DNA from: an uncultured virus (IMG/VR IMGVR_UViG_3300048813_000256)
Taxonomy: Duplodnaviria > Heunggongvirae > Uroviricota > Caudoviricetes
IMG/VR virus record: IMGVR_UViG_3300048813_000256
Length of the DNA: 64,000 bases
Direction: 5' to 3' (one strand)
Made by a program: the position numbers and the translations under genes. This document shows, one piece after another, positions 16,683-31,460 of the stretch. The notes under the pieces were generated by a model that was given only the letters and a program-made list of their open reading frames with translations, searched no databases and was not told the origin of the DNA. Positions within the stretch are counted from its first letter, which is position 1. Every line of letters begins with the position of its first letter.

Positions 16683-19600
16683 ATGACCGACGCGAGAGCT
16701 ACGCTCGAACATTCCATCATCACCGGCCTGAGCCGGCGGGCCGACCTGACCGGCGTGACGATTACCGACGCCGACGTTCTGGTGCCGGATCTGATCGACG
16801 CGATATTTCACCCCTCGGTGCGGTGGGCGGTGCCGGCGTACCTCAAAGAACTGGAAGGCGGCGCTTCGCCGAAGGGTACGGTGCCATGAGTGGGGTGTGG
16901 GCCAAGTGCGTGCGGCGGGGCATCTGCGAATGCGGCTACCCGGTGCTCGAGGAAAGCGCGCCGCTGGGCAAAATGTATCTGGTGGATCCCAACACGATCG
17001 GGCCGGGGAGGATTGGTTGCGGCGGCTGTGGCAAGATAACGGCCTGCGACCTGATCGAAGTGTGGGATGAAGGCGCCGGACGCCAGGCCACGATGCCGCT
17101 GGGCGTTCTGCAGTTGGGAGAGGCAGCGTGAGGCCATGGTGGACCCATGACGCCGCTGGGCGCGCTGCGCGGAGAGGCGGAGTGAAATTCTTTCTGCGGC
17201 GCCGCGCTCCCGGGATCTGGTACGTCGCCGCTGAAAATCCGATCTATGAAGCCGGCGTCAAGTTCCACTGGTTTGATTCCTTCGACGAAGCCTGGGCATG
17301 GCTATGGCAGAGCCCGCCTTGGGCATCTCTGTGGAGTGCGCGATGAACGATCCGTTGGCCGATCTTCTGGAAGTCAAAACGCAGACGCCGGTGCGTCACT
17401 ACTTTGTCACCGTTTGCCCCGCAAACGTCCACGTCCTCGATGAAGGCATGGCCCTGAAAATTCTCCTGCCCGCCGCCAACCCCCGGCAGGCTCGACGGCG
17501 GGTTCGCCGCTACGCTCCGGGAAGAATTCAGGCGGTGCAGTTGGTCCGGTGGACGGAGCGATGAGCTATGATCGATCTCTCTTGCGGTGGTCGCACCCCG
17601 CGTCGGAGGGTAGGAGCGCAGAGCCAGGCCGGGACTCCCGGCCTCCTTCGGCTTTCCGAAATCCGGAAAATCAGAAAAATCCACGAAAGAGGACTTGCGG
17701 CGGACAAGATCGTGCGCTAGACTCCGATCCTGTCACCAAAGGCAGTAGTGGCTTTTTAGGCTGGTAGTGATGGCTTTCTCCGACAGCTCCGTATTCGATA
17801 ACTCGCAGAATGATCGCGGCTCCCGCGCGGAACATCTGGCCTGGTGTAAACAGCGCGCCCTGGAATACGTCGACCGAGGCGACCTTACCGGCGCTCTGGC
17901 CTCGATGACTTCCGATCTCCGCAAGCATGCCGAAACCCAAAGCAGCGTGACCCTCTGTGGCGAACTCGGCGTGGCGCTGGCCATGAGTGGCCACCTCAAC
18001 ACTCCTGAGAAAATGCGGAAGTGGATCGAGGGGTTCAACTGATGAGCCAAGCGAGAGAGAGATTGCTTCGGCTCCTGGAGCGGCTTCGCGATGTCGCGCC
18101 CCAGCCGCCGGGCTTGCACTATCGCCTCATGTGGGATTTCGTGCTGCGTCACGGCACCTGGTACGAGCCGCGCGCCTATCCGCCGAACCTGCCCGACGGA
18201 CGGATCAAACAGTGCTTCGGCAACTCCATCATGCTTTCGGCCGCCCGCGGTTATCGCTACATCGAAGGCTTCGCGCTCATGCCTGAGCCCTTCAATTCCT
18301 ATCTGCCCATGCACCATGCGTGGAATGCCGATGCCTTCGGCGCCCTGATCGATTCGACCTGGAACAATGAAGGGATCGCCTATCTCGGCGTGGAGTTCTC
18401 GGTCGAGCGCGCCGACGATGCGACCTGGAACGGCGATGCTTCCGTGCTCAACGATTTCAGGCGGGGCTTTCCGCTTTTCCGGGATCTGTGGCAGGGCGAG
18501 GATTGGGGCCGCGCGTGGCCGGCGAATGACCGCGTCCGTCTGGTGCGCGAAGGCAAGATCGAAGAAGCCTATCGGCTGATGACGGCGGAGCTTACATTCG
18601 CTCCGATGACGGCAAGCTCTCATCCGCAGTCGCCATCAGCCACGTCGAAATTTTGAAGCCGGGCGCGGAGACCGCGGCATGAAAAACATGCTGTACATGG
18701 GCGACTCGAAGATCTCCTCGGCGGAGCGCGATGCGCTGTTCCGCGACGGCGGCCACGCCGTGGGCGTCGATGAACTTTTGGAGTTGGCCGAAGCTGCCGG
18801 CACGAGGCACGCCGAGTTCTACGCGGAGATCAAACCGCGCATGACGCGGGAGCGAGCGGAGCGCGTCCGGCAACTGCGCTGTGACGACGGATGGAGTTAT
18901 CGCCGGCTCGCCGGCATCACCTATCTGGAATGGGGCCGGGACGGCACCTGGTATCCGGAAACCAATCAGCTTGCGGGCGTGGCGCTGTGCGAGGCCGCGG
19001 CGGAGCTGCTCGGCGAAGATTTTCAGCAGTACCCGTGGCAGGCGAATCAGGCATGAGCAATTTCGAGATCATCGACGCCGGCGAAGGCCGCATCATCAAA
19101 GCGTGGCGCAAAGGCGTGCGCTTCGAGGACAAGGCCATCGACCAGCTCAAGAACACGGCGCGGCTGCCCTTCATCTACAAGTGGATGGCGGCCATGCCCG
19201 ACACTCATTGGGGCATGGGATCGACCGTGGGCACGGTGCTGCCCACGCGCAATGCGGTTGTGCCGGCGGCGGTGGGCGTGGATATCGGCTGCGGAATGAT
19301 GGCGGTTCGCACGCAATTCCGGCGCGAACAAATTGCAGATCTGGCCGAAGTGCGCGCGGCGATCGAGAAGGCGGTCCCTCACGGCCGTACGAATAACGGC
19401 GCCGTGGGAGACGTTGGCGGCTGGGCGCGAACTCCGGAGAGCGTGGCTCCGGCGGCGATCGCCGAAGCCTGGAACTCAGAATTCTCCGCCGAGTACGGAA
19501 GCATCATTGCGAAGCATCCGGGAGCACAGGCCAAGAACACGCTCTCGCAACTCGGGACGCTGGGCACGGGAAATCACTTCATCGAAATCTGCGCCGACGA

Positions 19601-22600
19601 GCAAGAGCGCGTGTGGATCGTGCTGCACTCCGGCTCGCGCGGGCTGGGCAACAAGATTGGCGGCTATTTTACCGACGTCGCAAAAGACTTGTGCAAGCGC
19701 TGGTTTATCGAGTTGCCCGATCCCGACCTGGCCTTTCTACCGCGGGGCGAGGCGGCATTCGACGACTACCTGCACGCCGTCTCATTCGCGCAGCGCTTCG
19801 CCTGGCGCAACCGCGAGATCATGATGGAAAATATCGTAGCCGCCCTTTCTCCGTTGCTGGGGGCCGTCGGCGAAGAGTTCCGCGTCCACTGTCATCACAA
19901 TTACGTCGTGTGGGAAAGTCACTTCGGCGAAAACGTTCTGGTCACGCGCAAGGGAGCGGTTCGGGCGCGGCTGGGAGATCTGGGCATCATCCCCGGCAGC
20001 ATGGGCGCGCGGACCTACATCGTGCGCGGCCTCGGGAACACGGATTCTTTCCAGACCTGTTCGCACGGCGCCGGGCGCGCCATGGGGCGCAAAGAAGCGG
20101 TGCGGCAATTCAGCCTGGCCGATCACATCAAGGCGACGGAAGGCGTCGAGTGCCTGAAAGATGCCAGCGTGCTCGATGAGACTCCGGGCGCCTACAAAGA
20201 CATTGAAGCGGTGATGGCGGCGCAGTCCGACCTGGTGGAACCGGTGTACCGGCTCAAGCAGTTCGTGTGCGTCAAGGGCGGCGACGAAAAAATAGGCCGG
20301 AAGAAAGTCGAGAGCGCGCCGGCATGAGACTGCTCAGGTACATCATCGCGTGGCCGCGCTACGTTTGGGCGGGACTGGTTTTCGGCCGGGGATGCCAGCT
20401 CTTTCCGGGATCGCCGGCTCTCGGCCTGTGGCAGCGCGAAGTTGAGGAGCTGCGGCCGCGATGGAGGAAAAGTTAAAAGGAGAGAACTATGAAGCGGAAT
20501 TGGTTCCTGCTCGTCTTCGTTCTGGCCCTCAGCTCACTGGCCCTCGCGCAGGGGCGCTGGCGGCGCATCGACCTCGGTTCCACCAACCTCACGCTCAACG
20601 GCATCGACCCCACCTTCGGGGCACTCGGCGGATTTCTCGAAGTGATCGGCGCGAATAAGCGGATCGCGTCTGACCTTTACCGGGAAAAGCGTTACTCGCT
20701 GCGCTGCCACGAATGCGATCATGTACGGGAAATCTCGAAGCAGGAGTTCGCTGGGTATCTCGCCGGCGGCTGGCCGAAACACTGCGGCGTAACGATGACG
20801 CTTGAAAGCGAGCCGCGATGACGGAGGCCGACGATGTTCCAGCGGGCTATCGCCGAGAGTGGGTTGCCGATGAAGGCTGGAAGGTGGCCGATCTCGACCG
20901 GACGTGCCGGCAAAAGGGATGCCACGATCCGGCGGTCGCCGCGCTTCGCAGAAAGCACGGGACGGGTTTCCGCTGGTGGTATTACTGTGCGGCTCATCTT
21001 TACGGCCGCAAGATCGAAGATGGCGTGGTGAAGGTTGAGCGCCTGGTGGAGATAGCTGCATGACCCAGCTCTACAAGACGGAAGTGGACTACGCGGTGGA
21101 AATAGTGCGGAGCGAAATGCTGGCCAATCCGGGGCCGATTGCGCCGCGCCCGATGGCCTTCCCGCCGGAGACCGGCATCGAGCGCCCCTTTTCCACTCCG
21201 CTCCATCCCGAGATGATGGCGCACTGGAAGAGCAAGAACATCATCGGCAGCATCATCGTGAAGATTTTGTTTCAGGCGCACGCGCGCGTGATCGTGTTCT
21301 TTTCCGACGCGCTGTTTGCTTCGCCGCCGCCCGGCAAGACGTTTGCCGACATGCCCCGCAATCTTTGGGAATGGCCGAAGGCGCTCACCCACGAGGCCCT
21401 GCTGGTCAACGTAAACGCCATTGGGATGAAGGGCTATGGGCTCTCCTACGGTTACACTCGCGACGGACTGGACCGGCGCGTATTCAACGCGGCGGCGCCC
21501 GATGTGGAACTGGACACTGGCCGCTTCTGCTTCGACCTGACCGAAGCCACAGAGGAAGCGGCCACGCTGGACGCTCTTCACCGCAACCGCGAGGGAGAGC
21601 TGGAGCCGATTGCATGATGCACACAATGTTCACTATGTTTCGCTACGGGATCGACGCCTTCCTGATCGCGGTGGTGACCACAAACTACCTCGCGGGCCGC
21701 AAGACGCGCCGCGTACTCGCGGAAGTTACCGCCCTGCGCGAGAAGCTCAAGAAGTACCATGATGAGCGCGCGCCCATGCTGATCAACGCCATGGAGCACA
21801 TGGCCTCCGGTGCCTGCCCGCTGTGCGCGGTCGCGTCAGGGCGCGGCTCGATCACCACCCCGGAAGGGGAACTGACGGCGGAAGCGGAAATCAACGGAGA
21901 GCACGTCATTCGCATCACCTGCGAGGGCAACGTCGTGAACGATGGAGTCGCCGAGTGCCGCGCCGCCAGCATCCGCGCCGACGCCCGCAAGCTGTTCGCG
22001 GAGACGATGGAGGAGAAAACGGCCGCGTGAAAACTCCTTTAGAAATCGCCGCCGATAATTTCCACGCTCACCTGGACGTCTGCCAGCAGTGCGAAGGCCA
22101 TCCCTTCCAGCTTTGCCCCACCGGGCACGAGTTGCTGCTGGCTGTGGGCGAAGCGAGTCCGCTGAACCGCGCCGGTCCGCGGCCCGACGTGATGGATGTG
22201 CTGGAAGAGGCTATCCGCACCATCGCGAAGCGCAACGGGCTTACCGTCAACGAAGAAAGCATCCGGCGGTCGCGCGAATTCTGCGATCGCATGGTGGATC
22301 CCGAAACCGGAAAGGAAACCGATGGCGGATAAAGACGACCCTAACCTTTCGGCGTACGAACTGCAGCGCGTGGTGGATAAGATCGGCAAGCTTTCCGCCG
22401 CGTTGAGGTCCTCCGGCCTGGGCGTGGAAGTGACCGCGCATATCGCGCTGAGCTTCGAGGTCAAACTGACAGACCTAAGCGATGCTGGAAAGACGCGGAA
22501 AAAGCAGCGCCAATCGGGTGCAAAAGCATGAACGATGAAGCTAGGCCCACACCGGCCGTCATCTGCGCCCGCTGCACCGAAGCAATCCTCGAGGGCGAGG

Positions 22601-23826
22601 AGCGCATGCCCTTTAACGCCGGGCTCGTGTGGATGCACCGCAACTGCGGGCTGCGCGGAATCATCGGCTCGATCGCACACCTACAGGGCCGATGCTCCTG
22701 CTTCGTCCCCGGCTCAACTGCCGGAGATCCCGAAGGCATGACGCTGCGCCAGGCGGCCGATGCCGCGGTGGAAGAATGGAAGCGCCTCGAAAGCTTGCGG
22801 CGCGCGGTGGCCGGTTCGCCCATCGCGAAATGCGGAGGCCACGCATGACCATCACCATCACTCAGGAAAAGCTGGTCGCGCTTTTGGCGCTAGCCGGCTG
22901 CGTGCTGATCGTCTCCAACCATCCGCGCCCGGGCGCGGTCTGCGAACTGGTTGTCGTTGTGATCATCATTTTGGGGTGGCGAACATGAAGCTAGGAGAAT
23001 ACGTTGACGCCCACACCGATCGCGGAGAATGCAAATGCGGCCGCTGCATCGACGTGGGCACGAAGCCCGATCCAATCGGCCACACTGCCGACATGGTTTT
23101 CTTTTTGGTGGCGAAGAAAGACGAACCCAGCGCGGCCGAGTTCGAAGCCTTGACCAAAGCGCATCCGGGCGACTGGCAAGAGTGCGATCCGCTGGACGGC
23201 AAAGAGCATAGCTATCTTGAGCTGGGCGCGTGGCTCGGCGACCAAGGGGTGGCTCTGCGCTACATGGCCCTCGGTTCGCTGCTGGGAGTTTTCGATCTGC
23301 TCACTCCGCGCACCATGCTGCCCGCTCTCGATGAGGATCTGGTCATGGAGATGGCCGGCGCCGGCTACATCACGGTGCAACGCAAGGGCGCACAGAAAAC
23401 GACGGCGGCAGCATGATCCACATTGTGCAATGCCTTTGCCCCGATCGCCACTGCGTTATCGCAGTGGCCTATGACGATGCCGAAACCAGCGGTGAAGAAG
23501 CCCAGCGGCAGCTCCAGGCTTTGCTCAAGAACGCCGTCGACCAACGCGTGCTCAACCCGTGGTGTGGCATTTGCCTCTCGTGGGATCTGTACTACGAAGA
23601 CAGCGTGACCCGCTTTCGCACCATGGAAGAGGCGAAGCCGGCACTCGCGCAATGCCAGACAGACCAGTTTGCCAGCCGCGCCCTGATCGACGAAGCGCAG
23701 CGGGCTCCGCAGAACTGAGGAGAAAACGCGATGTTGCATCCGAACTTGCCGCCACTGCTCTCTCGAATGAAGCACCTGGCCGTCGAGTCTGCGGTTTTCG
23801 ATCAATCGAAGGAAGCGTTCTTCTGA
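16683..23826 (+). other. Run of ~20 small, translationally coupled hypothetical phage ORFs, many with CxxC pairs, surrounding rtcB
   Basis: Successive ATGA/GTGA overlaps on the + strand. Confidence 0.65.
19053..20327 (+). CDS. rtcB: RtcB RNA ligase
   Basis: MPDTH, PAAVGVDIGCGM, LGTLGTGNHFIE, HSGSRG, HCHHNY, RKGA, IIPGSMG, SHGAGR, DETPGAYKDI. Confidence 0.97.
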   Translation: MSNFEIIDAGEGRIIKAWRKGVRFEDKAIDQLKNTARLPFIYKWMAAMPDTHWGMGSTVGTVLPTRNAVVPAAVGVDIGCGMMAVRTQFRREQIADLAEVRAAIEKAVPHGRTNNGAVGDVGGWARTPESVAPAAIAEAWNSEFSAEYGSIIAKHPGAQAKNTLSQLGTLGTGNHFIEICADEQERVWIVLHSGSRGLGNKIGGYFTDVAKDLCKRWFIELPDPDLAFLPRGEAAFDDYLHAVSFAQRFAWRNREIMMENIVAALSPLLGAVGEEFRVHCHHNYVVWESHFGENVLVTRKGAVRARLGDLGIIPGSMGARTYIVRGLGNTDSFQTCSHGAGRAMGRKEAVRQFSLADHIKATEGVECLKDASVLDETPGAYKDIEAVMAAQSDLVEPVYRLKQFVCVKGGDEKIGRKKVESAPA

Positions 23827-23897
23827 TGGGCGGACGCGAATCGGCGGACACGGTGAGGGCGCGGAAGCAGCGGTGGATTAGAGCACTCGACTTTTAA
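23826..23897 (+). CDS. Candidate Arg/Lys-codon leader peptide overlapping tRNA-Lys
   Basis: MGGRESADTVRARKQRWIRALDF with CGC, AGG, CGG, CGG, AGA, AAG; TGATG-coupled to an upstream mini-ORF. Confidence 0.35.
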   Translation: MGGRESADTVRARKQRWIRALDF

Positions 23898-23935
23898 TCG
23901 AGTGGCAGCAGGTTCGATTCCTGTCACCCGCACCA
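23861..23935 (+). tRNA. tRNA-Lys(TTT), degenerate acceptor/D arm
   Basis: ctcga-cttttaa-tcgag, T loop ttcgatt, CCA; two acceptor mismatches. Confidence 0.65.
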
Positions 23936-23940
23936 GGTTG

Positions 23941-24015
23941 GGAGCCTTCATTCAACGGGATAGGATCAGGCCTTCTAAGCCTGAAATGGGTGTTCGAGTC
24001 ATCCAGGCTCTACCA
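23941..24015 (+). tRNA. tRNA-Arg(TCT)
   Basis: caggc-cttctaa-gcctg; cloverleaf with CCA. Confidence 0.88.
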
Positions 24016-24019
24016 AAGT

Positions 24020-24095
24020 GGGAGCGTCGTCCAACGGATCAGGGCACACGGCTACGGACCGTGGAATGCGGGTTCGATTCCTGCCGCTCCTGCCA
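24020..24095 (+). tRNA. tRNA-Arg(ACG)
   Basis: cacgg-ctacgga-ccgtg; CCA. Confidence 0.9.
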
Positions 24096-24108
24096 TTTTT
24101 TGTTTGCA

Positions 24109-24184
24109 GCCCGCGTAGTTCAACTGGAGAGAGCGGTCGCCTCCTAAGCGACAGACCTGAGTTCGAATCTCAGCGCGGGCACCA
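24109..24184 (+). tRNA. tRNA-Arg(CCT)
   Basis: gtcgc-ctcctaa-gcgac; CCA. Confidence 0.92.
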
Positions 24185-24187
24185 TGC

Positions 24188-24263
24188 GGGCGGCTGGTGC
24201 AACGGATGAGCACACGGTTTTCCGAAAGCCGGGATCAGAGTTCGATTCTCTGGCTGCCTGCCA
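24188..24263 (+). tRNA. tRNA-Arg(CCG)
   Basis: cggtt-ttccgaa-agccg; CCA. Confidence 0.85.
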
Positions 24264-24403
24264 TTTTGAGCGGTTCTCCGGGCGTGAGCGAAGCGGGAGC
24301 CCGGACGCGAAATCCTGAGCCGTTCTTTGGCGAAGGATCATTCGCAACCGTGTGAGCATGTTTACATGTTTACATGTTGCTTTTCGATCATGGCCTTTCG
24401 TTC

Positions 24404-24432
24404 TTGACGCGCTGCCTGCGGGACGGTACTCT
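24404..24432 (+). promoter_or_regulatory. Sigma70 promoter for tRNA block 2
   Basis: TTGACG-17 bp-TACTCT; predicted +1 falls on the GTG at 24439. Confidence 0.75.
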
Positions 24433-24438
24433 CGATCT

Positions 24439-24528
24439 GTGAATCTCTTCCAACATAGCGATTGCTTCGGCCACCAGCCGACACCCACTACGCCAGCCGC
24501 GTGGCAGGGGGAAGGCACGTTTATGTGA
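24439..24528 (+). CDS. Leaderless attenuator leader peptide (29 aa)
   Basis: MNLFQHSDCFGHQPTPTTPAAWQGEGTFM*; codons match the downstream tRNAs. Confidence 0.75.
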   Translation: MNLFQHSDCFGHQPTPTTPAAWQGEGTFM

Positions 24529-24587
24529 GGGGATTTCGAGAGCACCAACGCCATCGAAGCCCCTCCAACGAGGGGCTTAAGTTTTTT
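24527..24587 (+). terminator. Attenuator: antiterminator plus intrinsic terminator
   Basis: Terminator aagcccctc-caac-gaggggctt then aagtttttt; alternative pairing of gaggggatttcga (24527-24539) with tcgaagcccctc (24554-24565). Confidence 0.75.
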
Positions 24588-24589
24588 GC

Positions 24590-24663
24590 GGCGCATTCTG
24601 CTAGTGGCAGGCAGCCTGTCTCTCTAACAGGGAACCCGAGTTCGATTCTCGGATGCGCTACCA
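24590..24663 (+). tRNA. tRNA-Glu(CTC)
   Basis: cctgt-ctctcta-acagg; CCA. Confidence 0.88.
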
Positions 24664-24669
24664 GTTTGT

Positions 24670-24743
24670 GGGGTCATCTTCTAGTGGCAGGAAAACTGAC
24701 TTTCGATCAGAGAACCGGAGTTCGATTCTCCGTGGCCCTACCA
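24670..24743 (+). tRNA. tRNA-Glu(TTC)
   Basis: ctga-ctttcga-tcag; CCA. Confidence 0.85.
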
Positions 24744-24756
24744 AGAGAGGTCGGAG

Positions 24757-24936
24757 ATGTTGCAGGCATTCGGGGAAACCGTGAAGCTGACCGACGCTCT
24801 CGAATGCGAGCGTGGCGGGGATCATCGCAAGCTGATCTCGGATGCGAGGGTCGATTACCTGACCCGCGGCATGCTGCCGGATGACAAGTTCGTGCTGTGC
24901 GGCCGCTGCGTGAAGGCGGTGAGTTTGAAAATTTGA
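24757..24936 (+). CDS. 59-aa Cys-containing protein inside the tRNA array
   Basis: GGAG RBS; MLQAFGETVKLTDALECER...LCGRCVKAVSLKI*. Confidence 0.55.
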   Translation: MLQAFGETVKLTDALECERGGDHRKLISDARVDYLTRGMLPDDKFVLCGRCVKAVSLKI

Positions 24937-25011
24937 GGCCGGTTGGCCGAGTGGCTTAGGCGCTGGCCTTTGGATCCAGCTACGGGAGTTCAATTCTCTC
25001 ACCGGCTGCCA
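24937..25011 (+). tRNA. tRNA-Gln(TTG)
   Basis: Loop ctttgga; ggccggt/accggct acceptor; CCA. Confidence 0.82.
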
Positions 25012-25018
25012 ATTTTGT

Positions 25019-25093
25019 TGCGGCTTCGTTTAGTGGGAAAGACCCGGCGCTCTGGACGCCGAGAGCAGAGTTCGAATCTCTGAGCCGTTGCCA
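25019..25093 (+). tRNA. tRNA-Gln(CTG)
   Basis: cggcg-ctctgga-cgccg; CCA. Confidence 0.88.
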
Positions 25094-25114
25094 GTTCTTT
25101 GACAATTGATTTAC

Positions 25115-25192
25115 GGGGATGAGGGCAAAGTGGCCGAGCCGCCTCACTGTCACTGAGGAGTAAAGCGAGTTCGAGTCTCGTCATTCCCGCCA
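25115..25192 (+). tRNA. tRNA-Asp(GTC)
   Basis: cctca-ctgtcac-tgagg; GCCA end. Confidence 0.88.
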
Positions 25193-25193
25193 T

Positions 25194-25270
25194 AGGCCGC
25201 ATGACCCGACTGGAAGGGCGCTAGTCTCCAAAACTAGTTCTAGTGAGTTCGAATCTCACGCGGCCTGCCA
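25194..25270 (+). tRNA. tRNA-Trp(CCA)
   Basis: ctagt-ctccaaa-actag; CCA. Confidence 0.88.
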
Positions 25271-25274
25271 TTTT

Positions 25275-25381
25275 GCGTTCGCTGGAGTCGCAGGGCCGAC
25301 CGGGGAAAGCCCGGAGCAGGAAAGCAGTCTCCCGATCTGCGACGGGGAACGAGGCGTCGAGGACGCCTACAAAGCGAGCGC
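25275..25381 (+). ncRNA. Unidentified multibranch structured RNA
   Basis: Nested stems gcgttcgct/agcgagcgc, gtcgcagg/tctgcgac, ccggg/cccgg, aggcgtc/gacgcct. Confidence 0.5.
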
Positions 25382-25385
25382 GCGA

Positions 25386-25460
25386 GCGGGCGTGGTATAG
25401 CGGCTGGTGCCTTGGGCCTCCAACCCAATGACGCGAGTTCAACTCTCGCCGTCCGCTCCA
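25386..25460 (+). tRNA. tRNA-Gly(TCC)
   Basis: ttggg-cctccaa-cccaa (C33); TCCA end. Confidence 0.85.
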
Positions 25461-25468
25461 AATTTTGT

Positions 25469-25543
25469 GCTGGGATCGTCTAGCGGCCAGGATATTGCGT
25501 TGCCAACGCGATGACACGGGTTCGAGTCCCGTTCCCCGCACCA
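25469..25543 (+). tRNA. tRNA-Gly(GCC)
   Basis: ttgcg-ttgccaa-cgcga; CCA. Confidence 0.87.
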
Positions 25544-25549
25544 GGTTTC

Positions 25550-25623
25550 GGTCGGTTGTCCGAGCGGCCAGGTAGATGCCTGCAAAGCATCTGACGGGGG
25601 TTCAACTCCCTCACCGACCTCCA
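25550..25623 (+). tRNA. tRNA-Cys(GCA)
   Basis: gatgc-ctgcaaa-gcatc; TCCA end. Confidence 0.9.
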
Positions 25624-25624
25624 G

Positions 25625-25699
25625 GCCAGCGTAGCTCAACAGGCAGAGCGCCAGATTCGTACCCTGGTGATCGGCGTTCGATCCGTCGCGCTGGCTCCA
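25625..25699 (+). tRNA. tRNA-Thr(CGT)
   Basis: Loop ttcgtac; gccagcg/cgctggc acceptor; CCA. Confidence 0.87.
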
Positions 25700-25704
25700 T
25701 GTTT

Positions 25705-25780
25705 GCCGGTGAAGCACATGAGGATGTGCGCTCCCTTGGTAAGGGAGAGGCAGTCAGTTCGAATCTGATCGCTGGCTCCA
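25705..25780 (+). tRNA. tRNA-Thr(GGT)
   Basis: ctccc-ttggtaa-gggag; CCA. Confidence 0.88.
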
Positions 25781-25793
25781 GTTTTTTAGAAGT

Positions 25794-25869
25794 GCCGGTG
25801 TAGCTCAAAGGCAGAGCGGTCGATCTGTACTCGACAGGTTGCGGGTTCAACTCCACGCCGCCGGCTCCA
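25794..25869 (+). tRNA. tRNA-Thr(TGT)
   Basis: gtcga-tctgtac-tcgac (C33); CCA. Confidence 0.82.
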
Positions 25870-25883
25870 AGTTTAGTTTTTGA

Positions 25884-25958
25884 GTGGCCCAACCCAAACG
25901 GTGCGGGGCGTGTCTGTGGAACACGTTTTAGAGGGTTCGACTCCCTCGGGTCACCCCA
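25884..25958 (+). tRNA. tRNA-His(GTG)
   Basis: cgtgt-ctgtgga-acacg; C73 then CCA. Confidence 0.87.
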
Positions 25959-25961
25959 AGT

Positions 25962-26036
25962 GGGCGAGTGGTGTAAGTGGGAGCATAGACGGTTTGCACC
26001 CGTCAGGCGCGGCTTCGAGTGCCGCCTTGTCCACCA
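25962..26036 (+). tRNA. tRNA-Ala(TGC)
   Basis: gacgg-tttgcac-ccgtc; G3-U70 pair; ACCA end. Confidence 0.87.
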
Positions 26037-26103
26037 GATCTTGCAAGGGCTATCGCGCTAGCTTGCCGGGAAACGCGCGTGATGTAACCCGGCTCCAAAA
26101 TGT

Positions 26104-26179
26104 GGGAAGCTGGCGTAGCCGGTGCGCGCGCTGGCCTGAAAAGCCAGAGGATTCCGTTCGACTCGGAGGCTTCTCACCA
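26104..26179 (+). tRNA. tRNA-Phe(GAA)
   Basis: ctggc-ctgaaaa-gccag; CCA. Confidence 0.9.
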
Positions 26180-26180
26180 T

Positions 26181-26263
26181 CGGGGTGTCGGCTAGCGGCG
26201 AGGCCACCTGCCTTGGGAGCAGGTACACAAACACCAGAGGTTCGAGTCCTCTCACCCCGACCA
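26181..26263 (+). tRNA. tRNA-Pro(TGG), enlarged variable loop
   Basis: cctgc-cttggga-gcagg; cggggtg/caccccg acceptor; CCA. Confidence 0.87.
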
Positions 26264-26348
26264 TTTTTTGACGATGCGCTAATCGCCTGCGGATTGACCG
26301 GAAAATGAGCGATCTTCGGGCCACGCACTCCCGTGACCGCTTTTGCGA

Positions 26349-26377
26349 TTGACACCGCGGGGCGCTTCCGCTAGGTT
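26349..26377 (+). promoter_or_regulatory. Sigma70 promoter for tRNA block 3
   Basis: TTGACA-17 bp-TAGGTT, +1 near the tRNA-Met 5' end. Confidence 0.7.
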
Positions 26378-26382
26378 TGAGA

Positions 26383-26459
26383 GGCGCGGTAGTAGCGTAG
26401 GACAATACGGGAGGCTCATAACCTCCAGACGGTGCGTGCAAATCCACCCCGCGCAACCA
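26383..26459 (+). tRNA. tRNA-Met(CAT), initiator-like
   Basis: ggagg-ctcataa-cctcc; 1:72 mismatch; atypical T loop; ACCA end. Confidence 0.75.
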
Positions 26460-26468
26460 AAAACTTCG

Positions 26469-26528
26469 ATGTTCGCTCTACACTCATCCCGATTGTCGTT
26501 ACGACTCAGCATCCTGCTGGGTTATTAG
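26469..26528 (+). CDS. Leu/Ser/Tyr-rich leader peptide (19 aa)
   Basis: MFALHSSRLSLRLSILLGY* just before the Leu/Ser/Ser/Tyr/Leu tRNAs. Confidence 0.6.
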   Translation: MFALHSSRLSLRLSILLGY

Positions 26529-26542
26529 TCCCCACACAATTC

Positions 26543-26626
26543 AGGCCCATGGCGGAACGGCAGACGCAGCCGCCTCAAGAGCGGTCGCCTTCGGGCATGA
26601 GAGTTCAAATCTCTCTGGGCCTACCA
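26543..26626 (+). tRNA. tRNA-Leu(CAA)
   Basis: Loop ctcaaga; long variable arm; CCA. Confidence 0.9.
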
Positions 26627-26655
26627 AAGTTTCTTTGATCTTTGACAATTCAAAC

Positions 26656-26743
26656 GGAGAGTTGGGCGAGTGGCTTATGCCGCGATCCTGCTAAGATCGA
26701 GCGCCCAAGGGCGCCGCGAGTTCGAATCTCGCACTCTCCGCCA
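26656..26743 (+). tRNA. tRNA-Ser(GCT)
   Basis: cgatc-ctgctaa-gatcg; long variable arm; GCCA end. Confidence 0.92.
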
Positions 26744-26744
26744 C

Positions 26745-26834
26745 GGAGAAGTGGGCGAGTCCGGCTTATGCCAGCAGTCCCGAAAACTGCCACACCTGCG
26801 GGTGTCGTGAGTTCAAATCTCACCTTCTCCGCCA
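26745..26834 (+). tRNA. tRNA-Ser(CGA)
   Basis: gcagt-cccgaaa-actgc; long variable arm; GCCA end. Confidence 0.9.
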
Positions 26835-26838
26835 TTTT

Positions 26839-26929
26839 GCACAGATGCGTGAGCCCGGCTGAAACGGACCGGCTGTAACCCGGTTTCCCCGAGTGGGACG
26901 CGGAGGTTCAAATCCTTCTCTGTGCACCA
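26839..26929 (+). tRNA. tRNA-Tyr(GTA)
   Basis: accgg-ctgtaac-ccggt; long variable arm; ACCA end. Confidence 0.88.
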
Positions 26930-26931
26930 GT

Positions 26932-27007
26932 GGGCCCATGGTGTAATCGGCAAACACGGCTGCCTTAGGAGCAGCTTTTGAGGGTTCGAATCCTTCTGGG
27001 CCTACCA
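26932..27007 (+). tRNA. tRNA-Leu(TAG), short variable loop
   Basis: gctgc-cttagga-gcagc; variable region only tttt; CCA. Confidence 0.85.
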
Positions 27008-27025
27008 ATTTCTGAGGGGACTGTC

Positions 27026-27427
27026 ATGCACGACATCGACGTAATTGCGCGGCTGCTGGGCAACTTTGACGAAAACGAGTTCGCGCATGGGTGTCGATTC
27101 TGCATCCGCTGCGGGACCAAGAATTTGCAGCGCTCGGCGCGGACGACGAACCGCGAGGGCAAACCGCTGCAAGGGCGCGACTATTGGTGCACGCTGTGCG
27201 GTTTCAGCTTCAACGTGCGGATGAGCGTGGAGTGGGCGTTGGCGCTGGATCTGTTTCGCGACCATCGCCGCAACCGGACGATGCCTCGCTATCAGGAACA
27301 ATACGTCGACCCCGAAGTCATGGCGGCGTGGAAGGAAGAATACGAGAAACCGACCGCAGCGACGACCTGGCCGGCGGCCAGCCGGTGGAGTCTGGGTGAG
27401 AAGCTGAAAGCGGCTCTGTCCGGCTAG
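27026..27427 (+). CDS. Zn-finger protein closing the tRNA array
   Basis: CIRCG and CTLCG pairs; GAGGG RBS. Confidence 0.6.
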   Translation: MHDIDVIARLLGNFDENEFAHGCRFCIRCGTKNLQRSARTTNREGKPLQGRDYWCTLCGFSFNVRMSVEWALALDLFRDHRRNRTMPRYQEQYVDPEVMAAWKEEYEKPTAATTWPAASRWSLGEKLKAALSG

Positions 27428-27569
27428 GCCGCCAACAATATTTTAGATTTCCACCGTTTCCACTGTGATCCACAGGGGATCGCCGACTATAGCATGGCCG
27501 TGCGCCGGTGGATCAGGCGGCCCGATCTGAGCGTTTGAAACCGCATGCGGGCCCGCTTATCCTCAACAA

Positions 27570-28712
27570 ATGCCAGCCGCCGGCTTTGGAAAACCTGTGG
27601 AAGTTTCGGATATCAGCGTTGAGCGCCGGGGGCCGCGCAAGTGTGTTCGCCGCCCCCGCGTGCTCCTCGTGAACGCCAGCCATCCCGCCTACAACCTGGG
27701 ACTCGAGAAAGCCGCCCGCTGGTGGCAGCGCGTGCATGGCGCCGAGATCTTCCGGGCCTCCGACGTCACCCCGCTGTTTGGCTTCGACGCGGTTTGGATC
27801 AGCGCGGTTTTCTCCTGGCACGTCCCGACGCTGATTTCCACGGCGTCGATGGCGCAGGCGTTCGGCCAGCCCGTGGAAGTGGGTGGCCCTGGAACCTTCG
27901 GAGTGCGGCAGGCCATTTTCGAGAAGCTGGGGATCTGGCCGCAGAGCACCCCGGACGTCCGCTTCGAACGCGAGCCCGGAGACTACAAGATGGTTTTCTG
28001 GTCGCGGGGCTGTCCCGCCAAGAACTGCACCCTGGGCTTCCCTCGCGATGGCAAGCCGCCCATCTGCTCGGTGCCGGAAATGGAAGGCTGGCGCTATACG
28101 CTCTACCCCGACGCTTGTCCCGCCCGGCTGATCTCCGACAACAATCTCTCGGCGTTGCCGCGGGCCCATCAAGAGCTGATTGTGGAGCGCACGCTGGCGG
28201 CCGGCTTTCCCACGGTGGATGCAAACAGCGGATTCGAGCCGCGGTCGCTGGCTACGCGCTCCTGGGCGATCGAGCTGTGGCGGCGTCTGCCGCTGGTGGC
28301 GTGGCGCTTTGCCTATGACGAAGCGGGAGAGCGGGACGCGGTGCTGCAGGTTATCGGGTTGCTGGATGAGGCGGGAATCAGCCGCTCCCGGCTGCACATC
28401 TACTGCCTCGCCGGCAACGAGCCTTTGGAACAATGCGAGGCCCGGGTCCACGAAATCAACGAGTGGGGCGCCATTCCCATTGTGCAGGCGCGAACCCCGC
28501 TCGATTACATGGAAGGCCCGCTGCCCTGCCTGCACGATTGGACCAGCGAGAAACTCAAGGCATTCCGGCGCTGGGGCAATCGCTTTGGCAAAGGCATGCC
28601 GTTTTCCGAGTACCGGCACAACTTCGCGGAAAAGCCCTACCGCGGTGAGGATCTGTTCGCAGGCCCGCAGATGGAAGAGGACCTGGTACCGCAACTGAGG
28701 CTGTTCGGATGA
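27570..28712 (+). CDS. Radical SAM-like protein (phage type)
   Basis: YNLGLEK, ISAVFSW, VGGPG, SRGCPAKNC...C.VPEMEG, DNN, RFAYD. Confidence 0.75.
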   Translation: MPAAGFGKPVEVSDISVERRGPRKCVRRPRVLLVNASHPAYNLGLEKAARWWQRVHGAEIFRASDVTPLFGFDAVWISAVFSWHVPTLISTASMAQAFGQPVEVGGPGTFGVRQAIFEKLGIWPQSTPDVRFEREPGDYKMVFWSRGCPAKNCTLGFPRDGKPPICSVPEMEGWRYTLYPDACPARLISDNNLSALPRAHQELIVERTLAAGFPTVDANSGFEPRSLATRSWAIELWRRLPLVAWRFAYDEAGERDAVLQVIGLLDEAGISRSRLHIYCLAGNEPLEQCEARVHEINEWGAIPIVQARTPLDYMEGPLPCLHDWTSEKLKAFRRWGNRFGKGMPFSEYRHNFAEKPYRGEDLFAGPQMEEDLVPQLRLFG

Positions 28713-29752
28713 GAGGAACGATGGCAGAACGGAATTTCCCCAAGACGGTGCTTATCACCTTCGATCCCAACCGAGATCCTGCGCGGCCGCCGGAGTTTCT
28801 GGCCCACCTTAGCGTGAGCGCGGCAATCGAAGACGACGGGCCCACCGTGGTGGCGGAGTATCGCCTGGTGCGCTCCCGGCGTTACCGCAAGAACACGGTC
28901 GATGCCGATACCGGCGAAGAGGCCGACTGAGCATGGGCGATCTTCTCCAAGTCGAATACACCTGCCACGGCTGTGGCGTAGGCGAGGGCGAAGGCGGCCG
29001 CGCCAAAGTCACGGTGCGCCATCGCCGGGAGAATCAGGACATCGTGGATTGGGTCAACGACTGCGCCCGGCTGGTTTCGATCGATCATCACGGGCGTTCG
29101 CCGAATTGTACAGCCGGGAAGTGCGACCTGATGATCCCGGTGAGCAAGGATGCGGAAGGCAACGAATTTCTGGGCTACAATCGCGCGATCGGCGAATAAG
29201 CGACCGTTTCATTCCGCCCGGAGGATCCGCGTGAGGTTTCGAGGTTCGAGATATGGAGAAATTCTGGTCTGACGATTTCGACATGGATCTGCTCAAGCTC
29301 TTCCCCGATCTGCCGGAGACGCTGGGCGGGACGGCGGAGCGCGCGCTGTGGACGGTGGGGCACGCGACCTATGGGCGCCTGAATCATCCGGCGGTGTGGA
29401 ATTCCACCGGCGCCCTCGGGGAGCTGGGTGCCTGGGTTTGGACCCGGAAGCCGAACTTGCAGCGTGACCGCCACGGTTGGTTCAACCTGGAAGGCGGCTG
29501 CGCTTCGGACGACCCCGAAATCGGATGCACCTGGCTGGAGCTGCTGCGCGACCAGTGGGCGCACCGCTATGGCTTTGTCCTGCTGCCGGCGAAGTCTATC
29601 TTCACGCCCGCGCCCCTGGCAGAGTTTGACACGATCATGTACGACCTGCGGGGTTGGCGGAAAGATGCAAAGGCGCTCCCCGCGCGCACCGTGGTGATGG
29701 CGTGGATTCTCCGGGCCAACCGGCAACTGGAAGAGGAATGCAGGCGGGCAGC

Positions 29753-29959
29753 ATGATCCGGCCGCTGGCGGAAATCGAAAGGGATACGGTTCTAGCGGCG
29801 ATCCGCGAAGTAAAAAATATACCGGAGGCGGCGCGGCAATTGGGGATCGGACAGACGACCATCTATCGGAAGTTGCGGGAGTACGGCTATGTGGCGGGAA
29901 CGAGCGCGAAGTTGGGTCGCGATCTGTTGGACCAGATTTGCCCGCATCTGGAGACGTAA
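29753..29959 (+). CDS. Stand-alone Fis-type HTH protein
   Basis: PLAEIERDTV...AARQLGIGQTTIYRKLREYG. Confidence 0.8.
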   Translation: MIRPLAEIERDTVLAAIREVKNIPEAARQLGIGQTTIYRKLREYGYVAGTSAKLGRDLLDQICPHLET

Positions 29960-31460
29960 AGGGAAAGAGGCTGGGGTTGACCAAACGATGAGCGAATTCA
30001 ATTTCTACACGCGGAGCCAATACTATTGCGGGGCCTGCGGAGAACCGCTTCTGCGGATGCGGCGCGTCGACGAGGGCATGGTGTTCATCCATCCCGACAC
30101 GTCCTGCGAACTCTCGGGCAAGGCGTTCTCTCCCCCGACCGTGCCGCTGGCCGAGATCAAGGGGCGCGTCTCTGACGGACGCTTCGTTCCCGAGGGCGTG
30201 CCCGCGCCAGAAATGGTGCGGCACACGTTCGGCGGAGTGGGAGCATGAGGACACTTGCCGAGCTGCAGGCCTGGCGCGATAAGGCAACCGAAATTCTGGG
30301 CGATCCCGCCGCGACGTGCGGTGTCGCCTTCTTCCGCTATGTGCGCTCCGGCCCGCTCTTCGACCCTGATTTGATTTTCAGCGACGAGGGCAGCGACTTG
30401 CTCTTGCGCTTCGAACGCCGCTCCGCGCCGTTGCGAATCTCGATCTCAAGAGAGGGCCCGAAGATGCTGGCCGGCGAGCTGGTGGAGTTTGGCGTCGACC
30501 GCATCGCGCCCGGCCTGTGGGTGCTGAACCCCTCGCTGAATATTCCCGGCGTGCTCCATGCCTTCATCGCTCTCTACGACGTTCCGGATCCGGCTCCGTG
30601 GGAAGGCGGCCTGATCCTGCTAACGGGATGATCGTCAAAGACGAGACTCCCGATCCTTTGTCGTCGAACCTGATTGAGTTCACGCGCAAGAAGCGTGAGC
30701 CATTGCTGGGGACGGTGCGCGCCGGCTATCAGTCCTGCCGTCATCCCCGAGTGTCGGTGAATGAGGAGAAGCGCATCGTCTCCTGCCGCGACTGCGATGC
30801 GGAACTTGATCCCTTTCAGGTGCTTTGGGAGATGGCGGTCCACGAACGCCGGTGGCTGGATGACCTGGAAGCGTGGGAGGCGATGCGGGATTCCCGTCTC
30901 TCCGATCGCTACGACGCGGAGTGGCAGCGCCACGTCGATGACATCGTTGAACCTCCGGCCGACCGCCGGCTCCGGGAAATCTGGGAAACCTTTCATGCGG
31001 TGCTGGGAGACAAATTCTGCGCCATGTACCATCGCAAGCGGCGGAAACGTCGGGGGCCGGAGTGGTACGGCCGCGACACTCGCGGCAGTTGCGTCTCGCT
31101 GCAGTATGCGCGCAGCCTTCTGGTTCCGAAGGTCGTTCCGGTGAAGGCGCAATGAGGCCGGGCGAGAAAAAGCCGATGCCGGCGGGGATCGAGGATCTCG
31201 CGGATGTGCTGGTCGCGCGGGTGCGCGAGTACGAGCGCAACTGCCGCTGTCCCAAGTGCCACGGCCACATGGCTTCGGGACGCAGCGGGCCGCTGCAGTG
31301 CGTCGATTGCGACTTCTGCCTCGCCAACCTGCGGAAGCTGATGCTGGGCGAGTTGGGCAGCTCGATCTTCTTCCCAGAACGGGAGCGGGGCGGAAGCCAG
31401 CCGGTGGCAAGCGAAGATTTTGCTTGCGTGCCGGAACGGATCGGCGGTAATCTGCTGGCC

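Follow-up and report, generated by a model that had tools for sequence, protein, structure and literature searches.

The trpL, hisL, pheL and leuL leaders are transcription attenuators of amino acid biosynthetic operons. Multivalent attenuators are also known, e.g. the ilvGMEDA leader (Ile, Leu and Val) and the thr leader (Thr and Ile). T-box riboswitches bind uncharged transfer RNA (tRNA) directly and regulate synthetase and amino acid genes. In M. tuberculosis, Cys-rich small open reading frames (ORFs) reportedly respond to cleavage of tRNA-Cys by VapC4. The reason for the presence of tRNA genes in phages, and the way these genes are controlled, have been debated for decades. The present locus is found in a 64,000 nucleotide (nt) stretch of DNA from an uncultured virus of the Caudoviricetes (IMG/VR record IMGVR_UViG_3300048813_000256), and this whole stretch is termed the window. 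A micro-ORF and a terminator hairpin lie directly upstream of 16 tRNA genes. The locus is probably a ribosome-mediated (leader-peptide) transcription attenuator that gates these 16 tRNA genes of the phage together with a small protein gene; the probability assigned to this reading is roughly 60%. A full-text literature search, judged from listings and the openings of abstracts, found no paper on leader-peptide attenuation of tRNA genes, and to that extent agrees with an initial annotation of the locus, which knew of no described attenuator over a tRNA array.

The tRNA array is on the + strand and has approximately 27 genes. The leader lies in a 326-nt gap within the array. The features of the leader and of the block that follows it are:

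24404..24432, + strand: promoter-like site with -35 TTGACG (24404–24409), a 17-nt spacer and -10 TACTCT (24427–24432).
24439..24528, + strand: leader micro-ORF MNLFQHSDCFGHQPTPTTPAAWQGEGTFM, 29 codons plus TGA (24526–24528), with a GTG start 6 nt after the -10.
24441..24450, + strand: region 1, the leader 5′ end, with predicted pairing to region 2 when the ORF is unoccupied.
24527..24539, + strand: region 2, the antiterminator 5′ strand GAGGGGATTTCGA, which overlaps the stop codon (from folds).
24552..24565, + strand: region 3, TCGAA plus AAGCCCCTC, common to the antiterminator 3′ strand and the terminator 5′ arm.
24570..24587, + strand: region 4, the terminator 3′ arm GAGGGGCTT, then AAG and T6, with the end of the T-run 2 nt before tRNA-Glu.
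24590..26263, + strand: block of 16 tRNAs, i.e. Glu (two), Gln (two), Asp, Trp, Gly (two), Cys, Thr (three), His, Ala, Phe and Pro.
24757..24936, + strand: gene for a 59 amino acid (aa) Cys/His-rich protein, within the 16-tRNA block between tRNA-Glu and tRNA-Gln.

The TTGACG-17-TACTCT site and the 29-aa ORF that begins with GTG, both reported in the initial annotation, are read directly at positions 24404–24528. The translated sequence of the ORF is (V/M)NLFQHSDCFGHQPTPTTPAAWQGEGTFM followed by the stop codon. The same annotation gave 16 tRNAs that cover 11 amino acids. ARAGORN at its default setting shows 15 tRNAs in 24590–26263, and the 16th, a tRNA-His at 25884–25958 (GTG anticodon), is seen at a relaxed threshold only. 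The default setting calls tRNA-His at the same array position in two related arrays, L088 and L089, which are described below.

In the proposed mechanism, transcription would start at or near GTG 24439, and a ribosome would translate the 29-codon leader as RNA polymerase moves ahead. With fast decoding, a ribosome at the TGA would cover region 2, regions 3 and 4 would then pair to form the terminator, and transcription would stop 2 nt before tRNA-Glu. With a ribosome stalled in the leader, regions 2 and 3 would form an antiterminator and the polymerase would enter the tRNA block. Without a ribosome, the leader 5′ end is predicted to sequester region 2, which would result in termination. The arrangement would act as an OR-gate, i.e. 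lack of any one of the sampled charged tRNAs would turn on resupply of the block. As the leader samples the codons of its own block, this would constitute a negative feedback on tRNA supply. Read-through in response to stalling, how strong this response is and in which direction it goes, and its physiological trigger are inferences. The purpose may be to counter anticodon nucleases, for which there is circumstantial support in the form of an RtcB tRNA/RNA ligase gene 3.5 kb 5′ of the array (18891–20327, phrog_1075, E = 1.4e-134).

The codons of the leader match the tRNAs of the block. Twenty-four of the 28 post-start codons are in the 11 amino acid set, no member of the set is missing, and Arg, Lys, Tyr, Val and Ile are absent; a recount of the initial figures gave the same values. 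Under standard wobble rules the leader contains cognate codons for 15 of the 16 tRNAs. The exception is tRNA-Glu (CTC), as the sole Glu codon is GAA. Stop-free stretches of 28 codons were counted in all six frames of the window, and 110 of 76,092 have at least 24 codons in the set. Only two of the 110 contain the complete set of 11 as well, and each of the two is the leader itself. When the array is left out of the background, none of 73,009 stretches reaches the joint statistic. There are 181 ORFs of 24–34 codons in the window, three of which have the full set of 11 amino acids and codons for 15 tRNAs, but none reaches the in-set fraction of the leader. The 11 amino acid set was defined after the sequence had been viewed, and these figures therefore needed independent replication.

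Homologous arrays were retrieved from metagenome contigs with the alignment of the 59-aa protein. These are L087, L088 (98%), L089 (76%) and L090 (60%), where the percentages are identities of the 59-aa protein; an additional contig, L091, is cut before the leader. The order of the array is identical in L087, L088 (which has an additional Pro-CGG) and L089. The L090 contig ends after the third tRNA, and the tRNA set of the window was therefore used for L090. The leader sequences of the relatives are:

L087: identical to the window.
L088: MNLFQHSDCPTPTTPAAWQGEGTFM, with a 12-nt in-frame deletion, one synonymous change of GGC to GGT, and a 1-nt insertion or deletion outside of the ORF, in the antiterminator loop.
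L089: MKTFGHFDCTTPATEQPWQDGGFM, with an ATG start and a TAA stop.
L090: MTLFTHCAPAAPAPGEGWQDEGTRM, with an ATG start.

The leader ORF is kept in four lineages (the window, L088, L089 and L090), with the start (GTG or ATG) and the stop (TGA or TAA) at homologous positions and with insertions and deletions that are in frame. ORF lengths are 87, 75, 72 and 75 nt, respectively. In L088, L089 and L090 the leader start is the first in-frame start codon within the gap. In the window the leader frame is also open upstream to GTG 24352 (58 aa), and this extension is located in an approximately 120-nt insert that is absent from L088. The leader peptides are 38%–50% identical and share 9–12 identical residues. 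The promoter-like site is also retained: the -35 is present as TTGACG or TTGACA in L088, L089 and L090, and the -10 is either TACTCT or TAAGGT, always with T1, A2 and T6.

The codon match is found in each lineage. In-set codons number 24 of 28 (window), 20 of 24 (L088), 21 of 23 (L089) and 21 of 24 (L090), i.e. 83%–91% in comparison with a background of 55%. The leaders sample 15, 15, 15 and 16 of the 16 tRNAs, respectively, and all 11 amino acids are present in each. The background probability of finding all 11 amino acids is 6.4e-4 for 23 codons and 1.0e-3 for 24 codons; that of sampling at least 15 tRNAs is 6.3e-5 and 1.2e-4, respectively. In codon-position shuffles, where bases are exchanged within each codon position such that position-specific base bias is kept, the observed number of in-set codons is attained in 0 of 7,857 valid shuffles for the window, 2 of 9,584 for L088, 0 of 5,364 for L089 and 20 of 13,166 for L090. 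To allow for shared ancestry, non-identical residues alone were counted in pairwise alignments. The residues in the set are 10 of 11 (L089 compared with L088), 13 of 14 (L090 with L088) and 13 of 15 (L090 with L089), and the binomial tails at a background of 0.548 are 0.013, 0.0028 and 0.010, respectively. The Asp and Glu residues shift position between lineages but are never lost, and the Thr codons of each lineage serve all three Thr isoacceptors.

The terminator is detected by a scan as a stem at 24557–24578 with nine pairs (six G-C) and a loop of four, followed by AAGTTTTTTG. Its stability is -16.6 to -17.0 kcal/mol in all lineages. With only 2 nt between the end of the T-run and the first tRNA, there is no room for a separate promoter. 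In the minimum-free-energy fold of the full leader of the window, regions 1 and 2 are paired and the terminator is intact (-58.8 kcal/mol, z = -3.5). A long-range pairing analogous to that of regions 1 and 2 is predicted in the folds of L088, L090 and L089, with a different partner segment in L089. Folds with the ORF masked contain the antiterminator in three lineages, i.e. the window, L088 and L090. Folding also reproduces the pairing, put forward in the initial annotation, of GAGGGGATTTCGA at the stop codon with the 5′ arm of the terminator.

The sequence of region 3 differs between lineages, where it is CCCCTC, GCCTCTCC (L089) or GGCTCCC (L090), and regions 2 and 4 change to match. The perfect antiterminator complements, of 6, 8 and 8 base pairs, co-vary with the terminator arm. 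In the list below, the offset is the number of nt from the first base of the stop codon to the start of the best Watson-Crick complement to the terminator 5′ arm. The shuffle count is the number, out of 5,000, with a complement at least as long that starts 0–6 nt after the stop codon. The arms were tabulated from folds of the individual sequences; the MAFFT alignment (A4) displaced one L090 arm by a column.

Window: 5′ arm AAGCCCCTC; stop-codon strand GAGGGG; offset 1 nt; shuffles 28 of 5,000.
L088: 5′ arm AAGCCCCTC; stop-codon strand GAGGGG; offset 1 nt; shuffles 32 of 5,000.
L089: 5′ arm AAGCCTCTCCA; stop-codon strand GGAGAGGC; offset 5 nt; shuffles 5 of 5,000.
L090: 5′ arm AAGGCTCCC; stop-codon strand GGGAGCCT; offset 4 nt; shuffles 1 of 5,000.

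The comparative tests thus support the core proposal of the initial annotation, namely a translated leader in which codons for the gated tRNAs are sampled and which is linked to a terminator/antiterminator switch.

A second micro-ORF is found further along the array. The 16-tRNA block is followed by a 279-nt gap with a promoter-like site and a weak Met-like tRNA, after which the last block begins:

26349..26377, + strand: promoter-like site with TTGACA, a 17-nt spacer and TAGGTT, kept in L088.
26386–26452: Met-like tRNA with a CAT anticodon, 27.2 bits by Rfam, just under the gathering score of 29, and missed by ARAGORN at default.
26469..26528, + strand: second micro-ORF MFALHSSRLSLRLSILLGY, before the Leu/Ser/Ser/Tyr/Leu block.
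26543–27007, + strand: last tRNA block, i.e. Leu-CAA, Ser-GCT, Ser-CGA, Tyr and Leu-TAG.

Eleven of the 18 codons of the second micro-ORF are Leu, Ser or Tyr, compared with a background mean of 17% (probability of at least 11, 3.5e-5). It samples five of five tRNAs, and none of 86,501 background stretches attains both values. The comparable ORF in L088 (positions 2520–2597) has an 18-nt in-frame insertion with more Leu and Ser codons, which gives 15 of 24. A comparison of the two ORFs with the two amino acid sets gives a Fisher p of 2.6e-5. No U-tract terminator is present 3′ of the second micro-ORF, and its mechanism, if there is one, must therefore differ; it is possibly linked to Rho or to processing. 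A leader was also sought for the upstream Lys/Arg block. The candidate, an ORF at 23731–23826, was rejected as unmatched, with three Lys/Arg among 30 codons.

Several observations weigh against the attenuator reading. The -10 of the leader promoter is weak, with three of six consensus positions (T1, A2 and T6), and for this reason a consensus promoter scan omits it. There is no Shine-Dalgarno sequence 5′ of the leader ORF in any lineage, whereas the 59-aa gene has GGAG 4 nt 5′ of its ATG. Initiation must therefore be leaderless or independent of a Shine-Dalgarno sequence. The distance from the -10 to the start is compatible with leaderless initiation in three lineages (6, 6 and 7 nt), but is 20 nt in L089, and in two lineages the start is GTG. 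The location of +1 at or near GTG 24439 and the translation of the ORF are accordingly presumed from the layout. Classical attenuators have tandem runs of regulatory codons, whereas here each such codon is present one to four times and runs are lacking. Codons for Thr, Ala, Trp and Glu are in the second half of the leader only, and a stall at such late codons would leave region 1, itself predicted, free. In L089 the minimum-free-energy fold with the ORF masked keeps an 11-bp terminator. In the window, a complement of equal length at some upstream position is in itself not unusual (621 of 5,000 shuffles), and the argument for a switch therefore rests on placement and co-variation. The diverged lineages number three only, and every lineage with a visible block carries the same 11 amino acid set.

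In addition, a screen of 33 unrelated blocks gives an overall signal that is weak and not general (mean rank of 0.55; p = 0.09 in a one-sided Wilcoxon test). The screen drew on 181 tRNA blocks in the loci of RtcB relatives (L001–L080). Thirty-nine of these have at least three tRNAs and 33 were kept once those preceded by under 150 nt of sequence, and those whose upstream sequence was a duplicate, had been removed; the statistic is the rank of a block's own amino acid set relative to other sets. L043, L038 and L011 stood out.

The L043 locus, on an unrelated viral contig, displays a similar layout at positions 1103–1283. TTGACA, a 17-nt spacer and TATAGT are followed by the ORF MTYGFTKRDRRRGEERGFTS, in which 14 of 19 codons are from the K, G, D, E, R and F set of the 11-tRNA block that follows. 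A hairpin is situated over the stop codon, and a second hairpin and then TTTGTCTT are just 5′ of the first tRNA (fold z = -3.1).

Four other explanations can be considered. The locus may be an RNA switch that is run by an antitermination protein of phage or host origin, by a small RNA or by direct tRNA binding, in which case the open frame would be incidental. The lack of a Shine-Dalgarno sequence and the GTG start in two lineages fit with this, as does the presence of a second frame that is also open across the leader in all lineages. The invariant sequence GTGGCAGG also resembles the D-loop of both tRNA-Glu genes. However, an incidental frame is not expected to keep its start and stop at homologous positions, to sustain in-frame insertions and deletions, or to show as its sole substitution between the window and L088 a synonymous one, and the composition tests disfavor it as well. 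No Rfam leader is found at threshold, the best E-value being 0.1 (20 bits compared with a gathering score of 95). This explanation is considered unlikely.

A second explanation retains the ribosome. The attenuator may be coupled to translation but report the overall speed of translation or the availability of ribosomes rather than particular tRNAs, and the amino acid match would then have another cause. For the geometry of the switch, all that matters is whether or not a ribosome arrives at the stop codon in time; the regulatory codons stand singly and not in runs, and the peptide accommodates residues outside of the set (N, L, S, K, R and M). A reporter of speed does not account for an in-set composition that survives sequence turnover and exceeds that of codon-position shuffles, nor for the sampling of all three Thr isoacceptor classes in every lineage. 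It also does not account for a second ORF of different composition that matches a different block, and it is thus rated as rather improbable.

The conservation of F4, H6, C, WQ and a C-terminal M raises the question of whether the micro-ORF is a small peptide gene with a function of its own, with the hairpin as its terminator and the tRNA block transcribed by leaky read-through. A protein with a PHROG radical SAM family match (phrog_9298, no Pfam) is encoded approximately 3 kb downstream, which would be in keeping with a peptide gene. This is quite improbable: most positions of the peptide are conserved in set membership and not in identity, the antiterminator at the stop codon co-varies with the terminator, and the terminator adjoins the first tRNA in three of four lineages. 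Chance, i.e. a spacer ORF of lucky composition beside an ordinary terminator, is highly improbable, for although ORFs of such length are abundant at 61.5% G+C, three of 181 random ORFs match all 11 amino acids and 15 tRNAs and the set was defined after the fact, the joint statistic is 0 of 73,009 and the match is replicated in diverged lineages and at the second block.

Known RNA families were also searched for at the locus. A pseudo-tRNA origin of the leader was rejected, as there is no match to a tRNA model in 24264–24589. The T-box riboswitch was rejected as well, with no match at E-values up to 1 in 22000–30000 or up to 10 in 24255–24595. The Rfam amino acid operon leaders (His, Trp, Thr and Leu) show no match. 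Other Rfam scores at the leader are below threshold and at chance level, i.e. Ysr49 (20 bits compared with 95), the rnk leader (16 compared with 55) and the serC leader (11 compared with 35).

The metatranscriptome library X10 has separate contigs over the three tRNA blocks, with depths of 3.2, 31 and 84:

23872–24176: depth 3.2.
24619–26261: 1,663 nt, depth 31, without differences and with adapter sequence directly after 26261, the end of tRNA-Pro.
26400–27039: depth 84, with adapter sequence directly after 27039, which is 32 nt past the last tRNA-Leu.

Being contigs, they are no proof of single transcripts or of transcript starts and ends. The different depths of the blocks hint at separate units of transcription or processing. 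The X10 contigs leave 24335–24588, which includes the leader, uncovered, and this gap counts neither for nor against the attenuator. Runs X20 and X17 contain short pieces from other organisms only.

A broader model can be offered tentatively. Phage tRNA arrays may be built of separately gated modules, each of which is located behind a test peptide written in its own codons. Loss of a tRNA, by a host anticodon nuclease or phage-induced decay, would be detected by a stalled ribosome, and the replacing block would then be transcribed. Together with RtcB this would make up a system to sense, repair and replace.

The stretch is found in peat and soil metagenomes. The genes of the window are of phage type, i.e. 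tail proteins, a tail fiber, endolysin, endonuclease VII, HNH endonucleases, a helicase and integrase-family genes. The remaining part of the array lies upstream of the leader:

23861..24263, + strand: upstream tRNA block with Lys-TTT and four Arg tRNAs (ARAGORN/Rfam), which ends before the leader.
23861–23932, + strand: the tRNA-Lys (TTT) of this block, found by Rfam only (39.5 bits) and missed by ARAGORN at default.

The open reading frame at 27570–28712, just past the array, encodes the protein with the match to the PHROG radical SAM family (E = 1.6e-6). Its presence and that of RtcB suggest a neighborhood of tRNA repair and supply. A Pfam scan of 20 ORFs neighboring the array gave no match. 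The 59-aa protein has 14 homologue clusters with 66%–98% identity (alignment A1) and invariant residues C17, H23, C48 and C51. It has no Pfam or PHROG family, and a protein atlas holds no match to it at 0.9 or above.

Searches of other collections gave few matches. The leader sequence has no blastn match among GenBank phages, and a megablast of 20000–30000 gave one trivial match of 66 nt. In IMG/VR there is no match to an exact 42-mer, to a conserved 24-mer of tRNA-Glu, to the 59-aa protein or its alignment, or to the ORF downstream of the array; the upstream 218-aa ORF is present at six loci, none of which has the array. Among the RtcB relatives (L001–L080, at most 57% identical), the array order is absent from the 40 that were scanned for tRNAs (L001–L040) and from all blocks called across the 80 loci. 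Alignment A1 gave three weak partial matches in the genome collection, none with tRNAs.

Two other sequences are present in the region 5′ of the leader. A tandem 8-mer, CATGTTTA, has 2.75 copies at 24357–24378, 5′ of the leader promoter, and is part of the insert of approximately 120 nt that is absent from L088. DNA run X8 has two extra copies (16 nt inserted behind 24356), and copy number thus differs between populations. The sequence at 24266–24320, just 3′ of tRNA-Arg (CCG), is matched with 3–8 differences by contigs from other organisms, at a bin depth of 168 in DNA run X17 and a depth of 49.9 in RNA run X20. It belongs to no Rfam family and may be host-like DNA that adjoins a tRNA-Arg gene.

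The attenuator proposed here belongs to a textbook class of mechanism; what is new is tRNA genes as the target and a sensor with 11 inputs. If the reading is correct, these would be the first tRNA genes described under a translational-attenuation feedback, and attenuation would be extended from the sensing of one to three amino acids to an OR-gate of eleven inputs. The idea predicts on-demand production of these phage tRNAs at times of impaired decoding, and it would tie phage arrays to host defenses that target tRNAs and to RtcB-type repair. The element is compact (about 150 nt) and could be adopted, as a natural design, to report tRNA availability in vivo.

In comparison with the known systems, the phage element shares its architecture with the trpL, hisL, pheL and leuL leaders. 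Here as well, a short ORF is situated between a promoter and structural genes, and a terminator competes with a mutually exclusive antiterminator. A ribosome that terminates at the stop codon would likewise mask an antiterminator strand, and the predicted pairing of regions 1 and 2 would give termination without translation. The classical leaders however regulate enzymes and have tandem codons, whereas the phage element has tRNAs as its target, single codons and 11 amino acids, and is apparently leaderless with no Shine-Dalgarno sequence. The multivalent attenuators also have one leader that responds to more than one amino acid as an OR-gate, but they sense two or three related amino acids by repeated codons; the phage leader has codons for 11 unrelated amino acids and for nearly every isoacceptor. 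T-box riboswitches similarly make a terminator/antiterminator decision that reports tRNA status, but they do so by direct tRNA binding, while the conserved ORF of the phage leader points to the ribosome as the sensor. In the case of the small ORFs that respond to VapC4, ribosome stalling is again said to signal that a tRNA nuclease has depleted a specific tRNA. These however belong to a host stress regulon, sense one amino acid and do not control tRNA genes, whereas the phage leader appears to sense 11 and to control the tRNA genes themselves.

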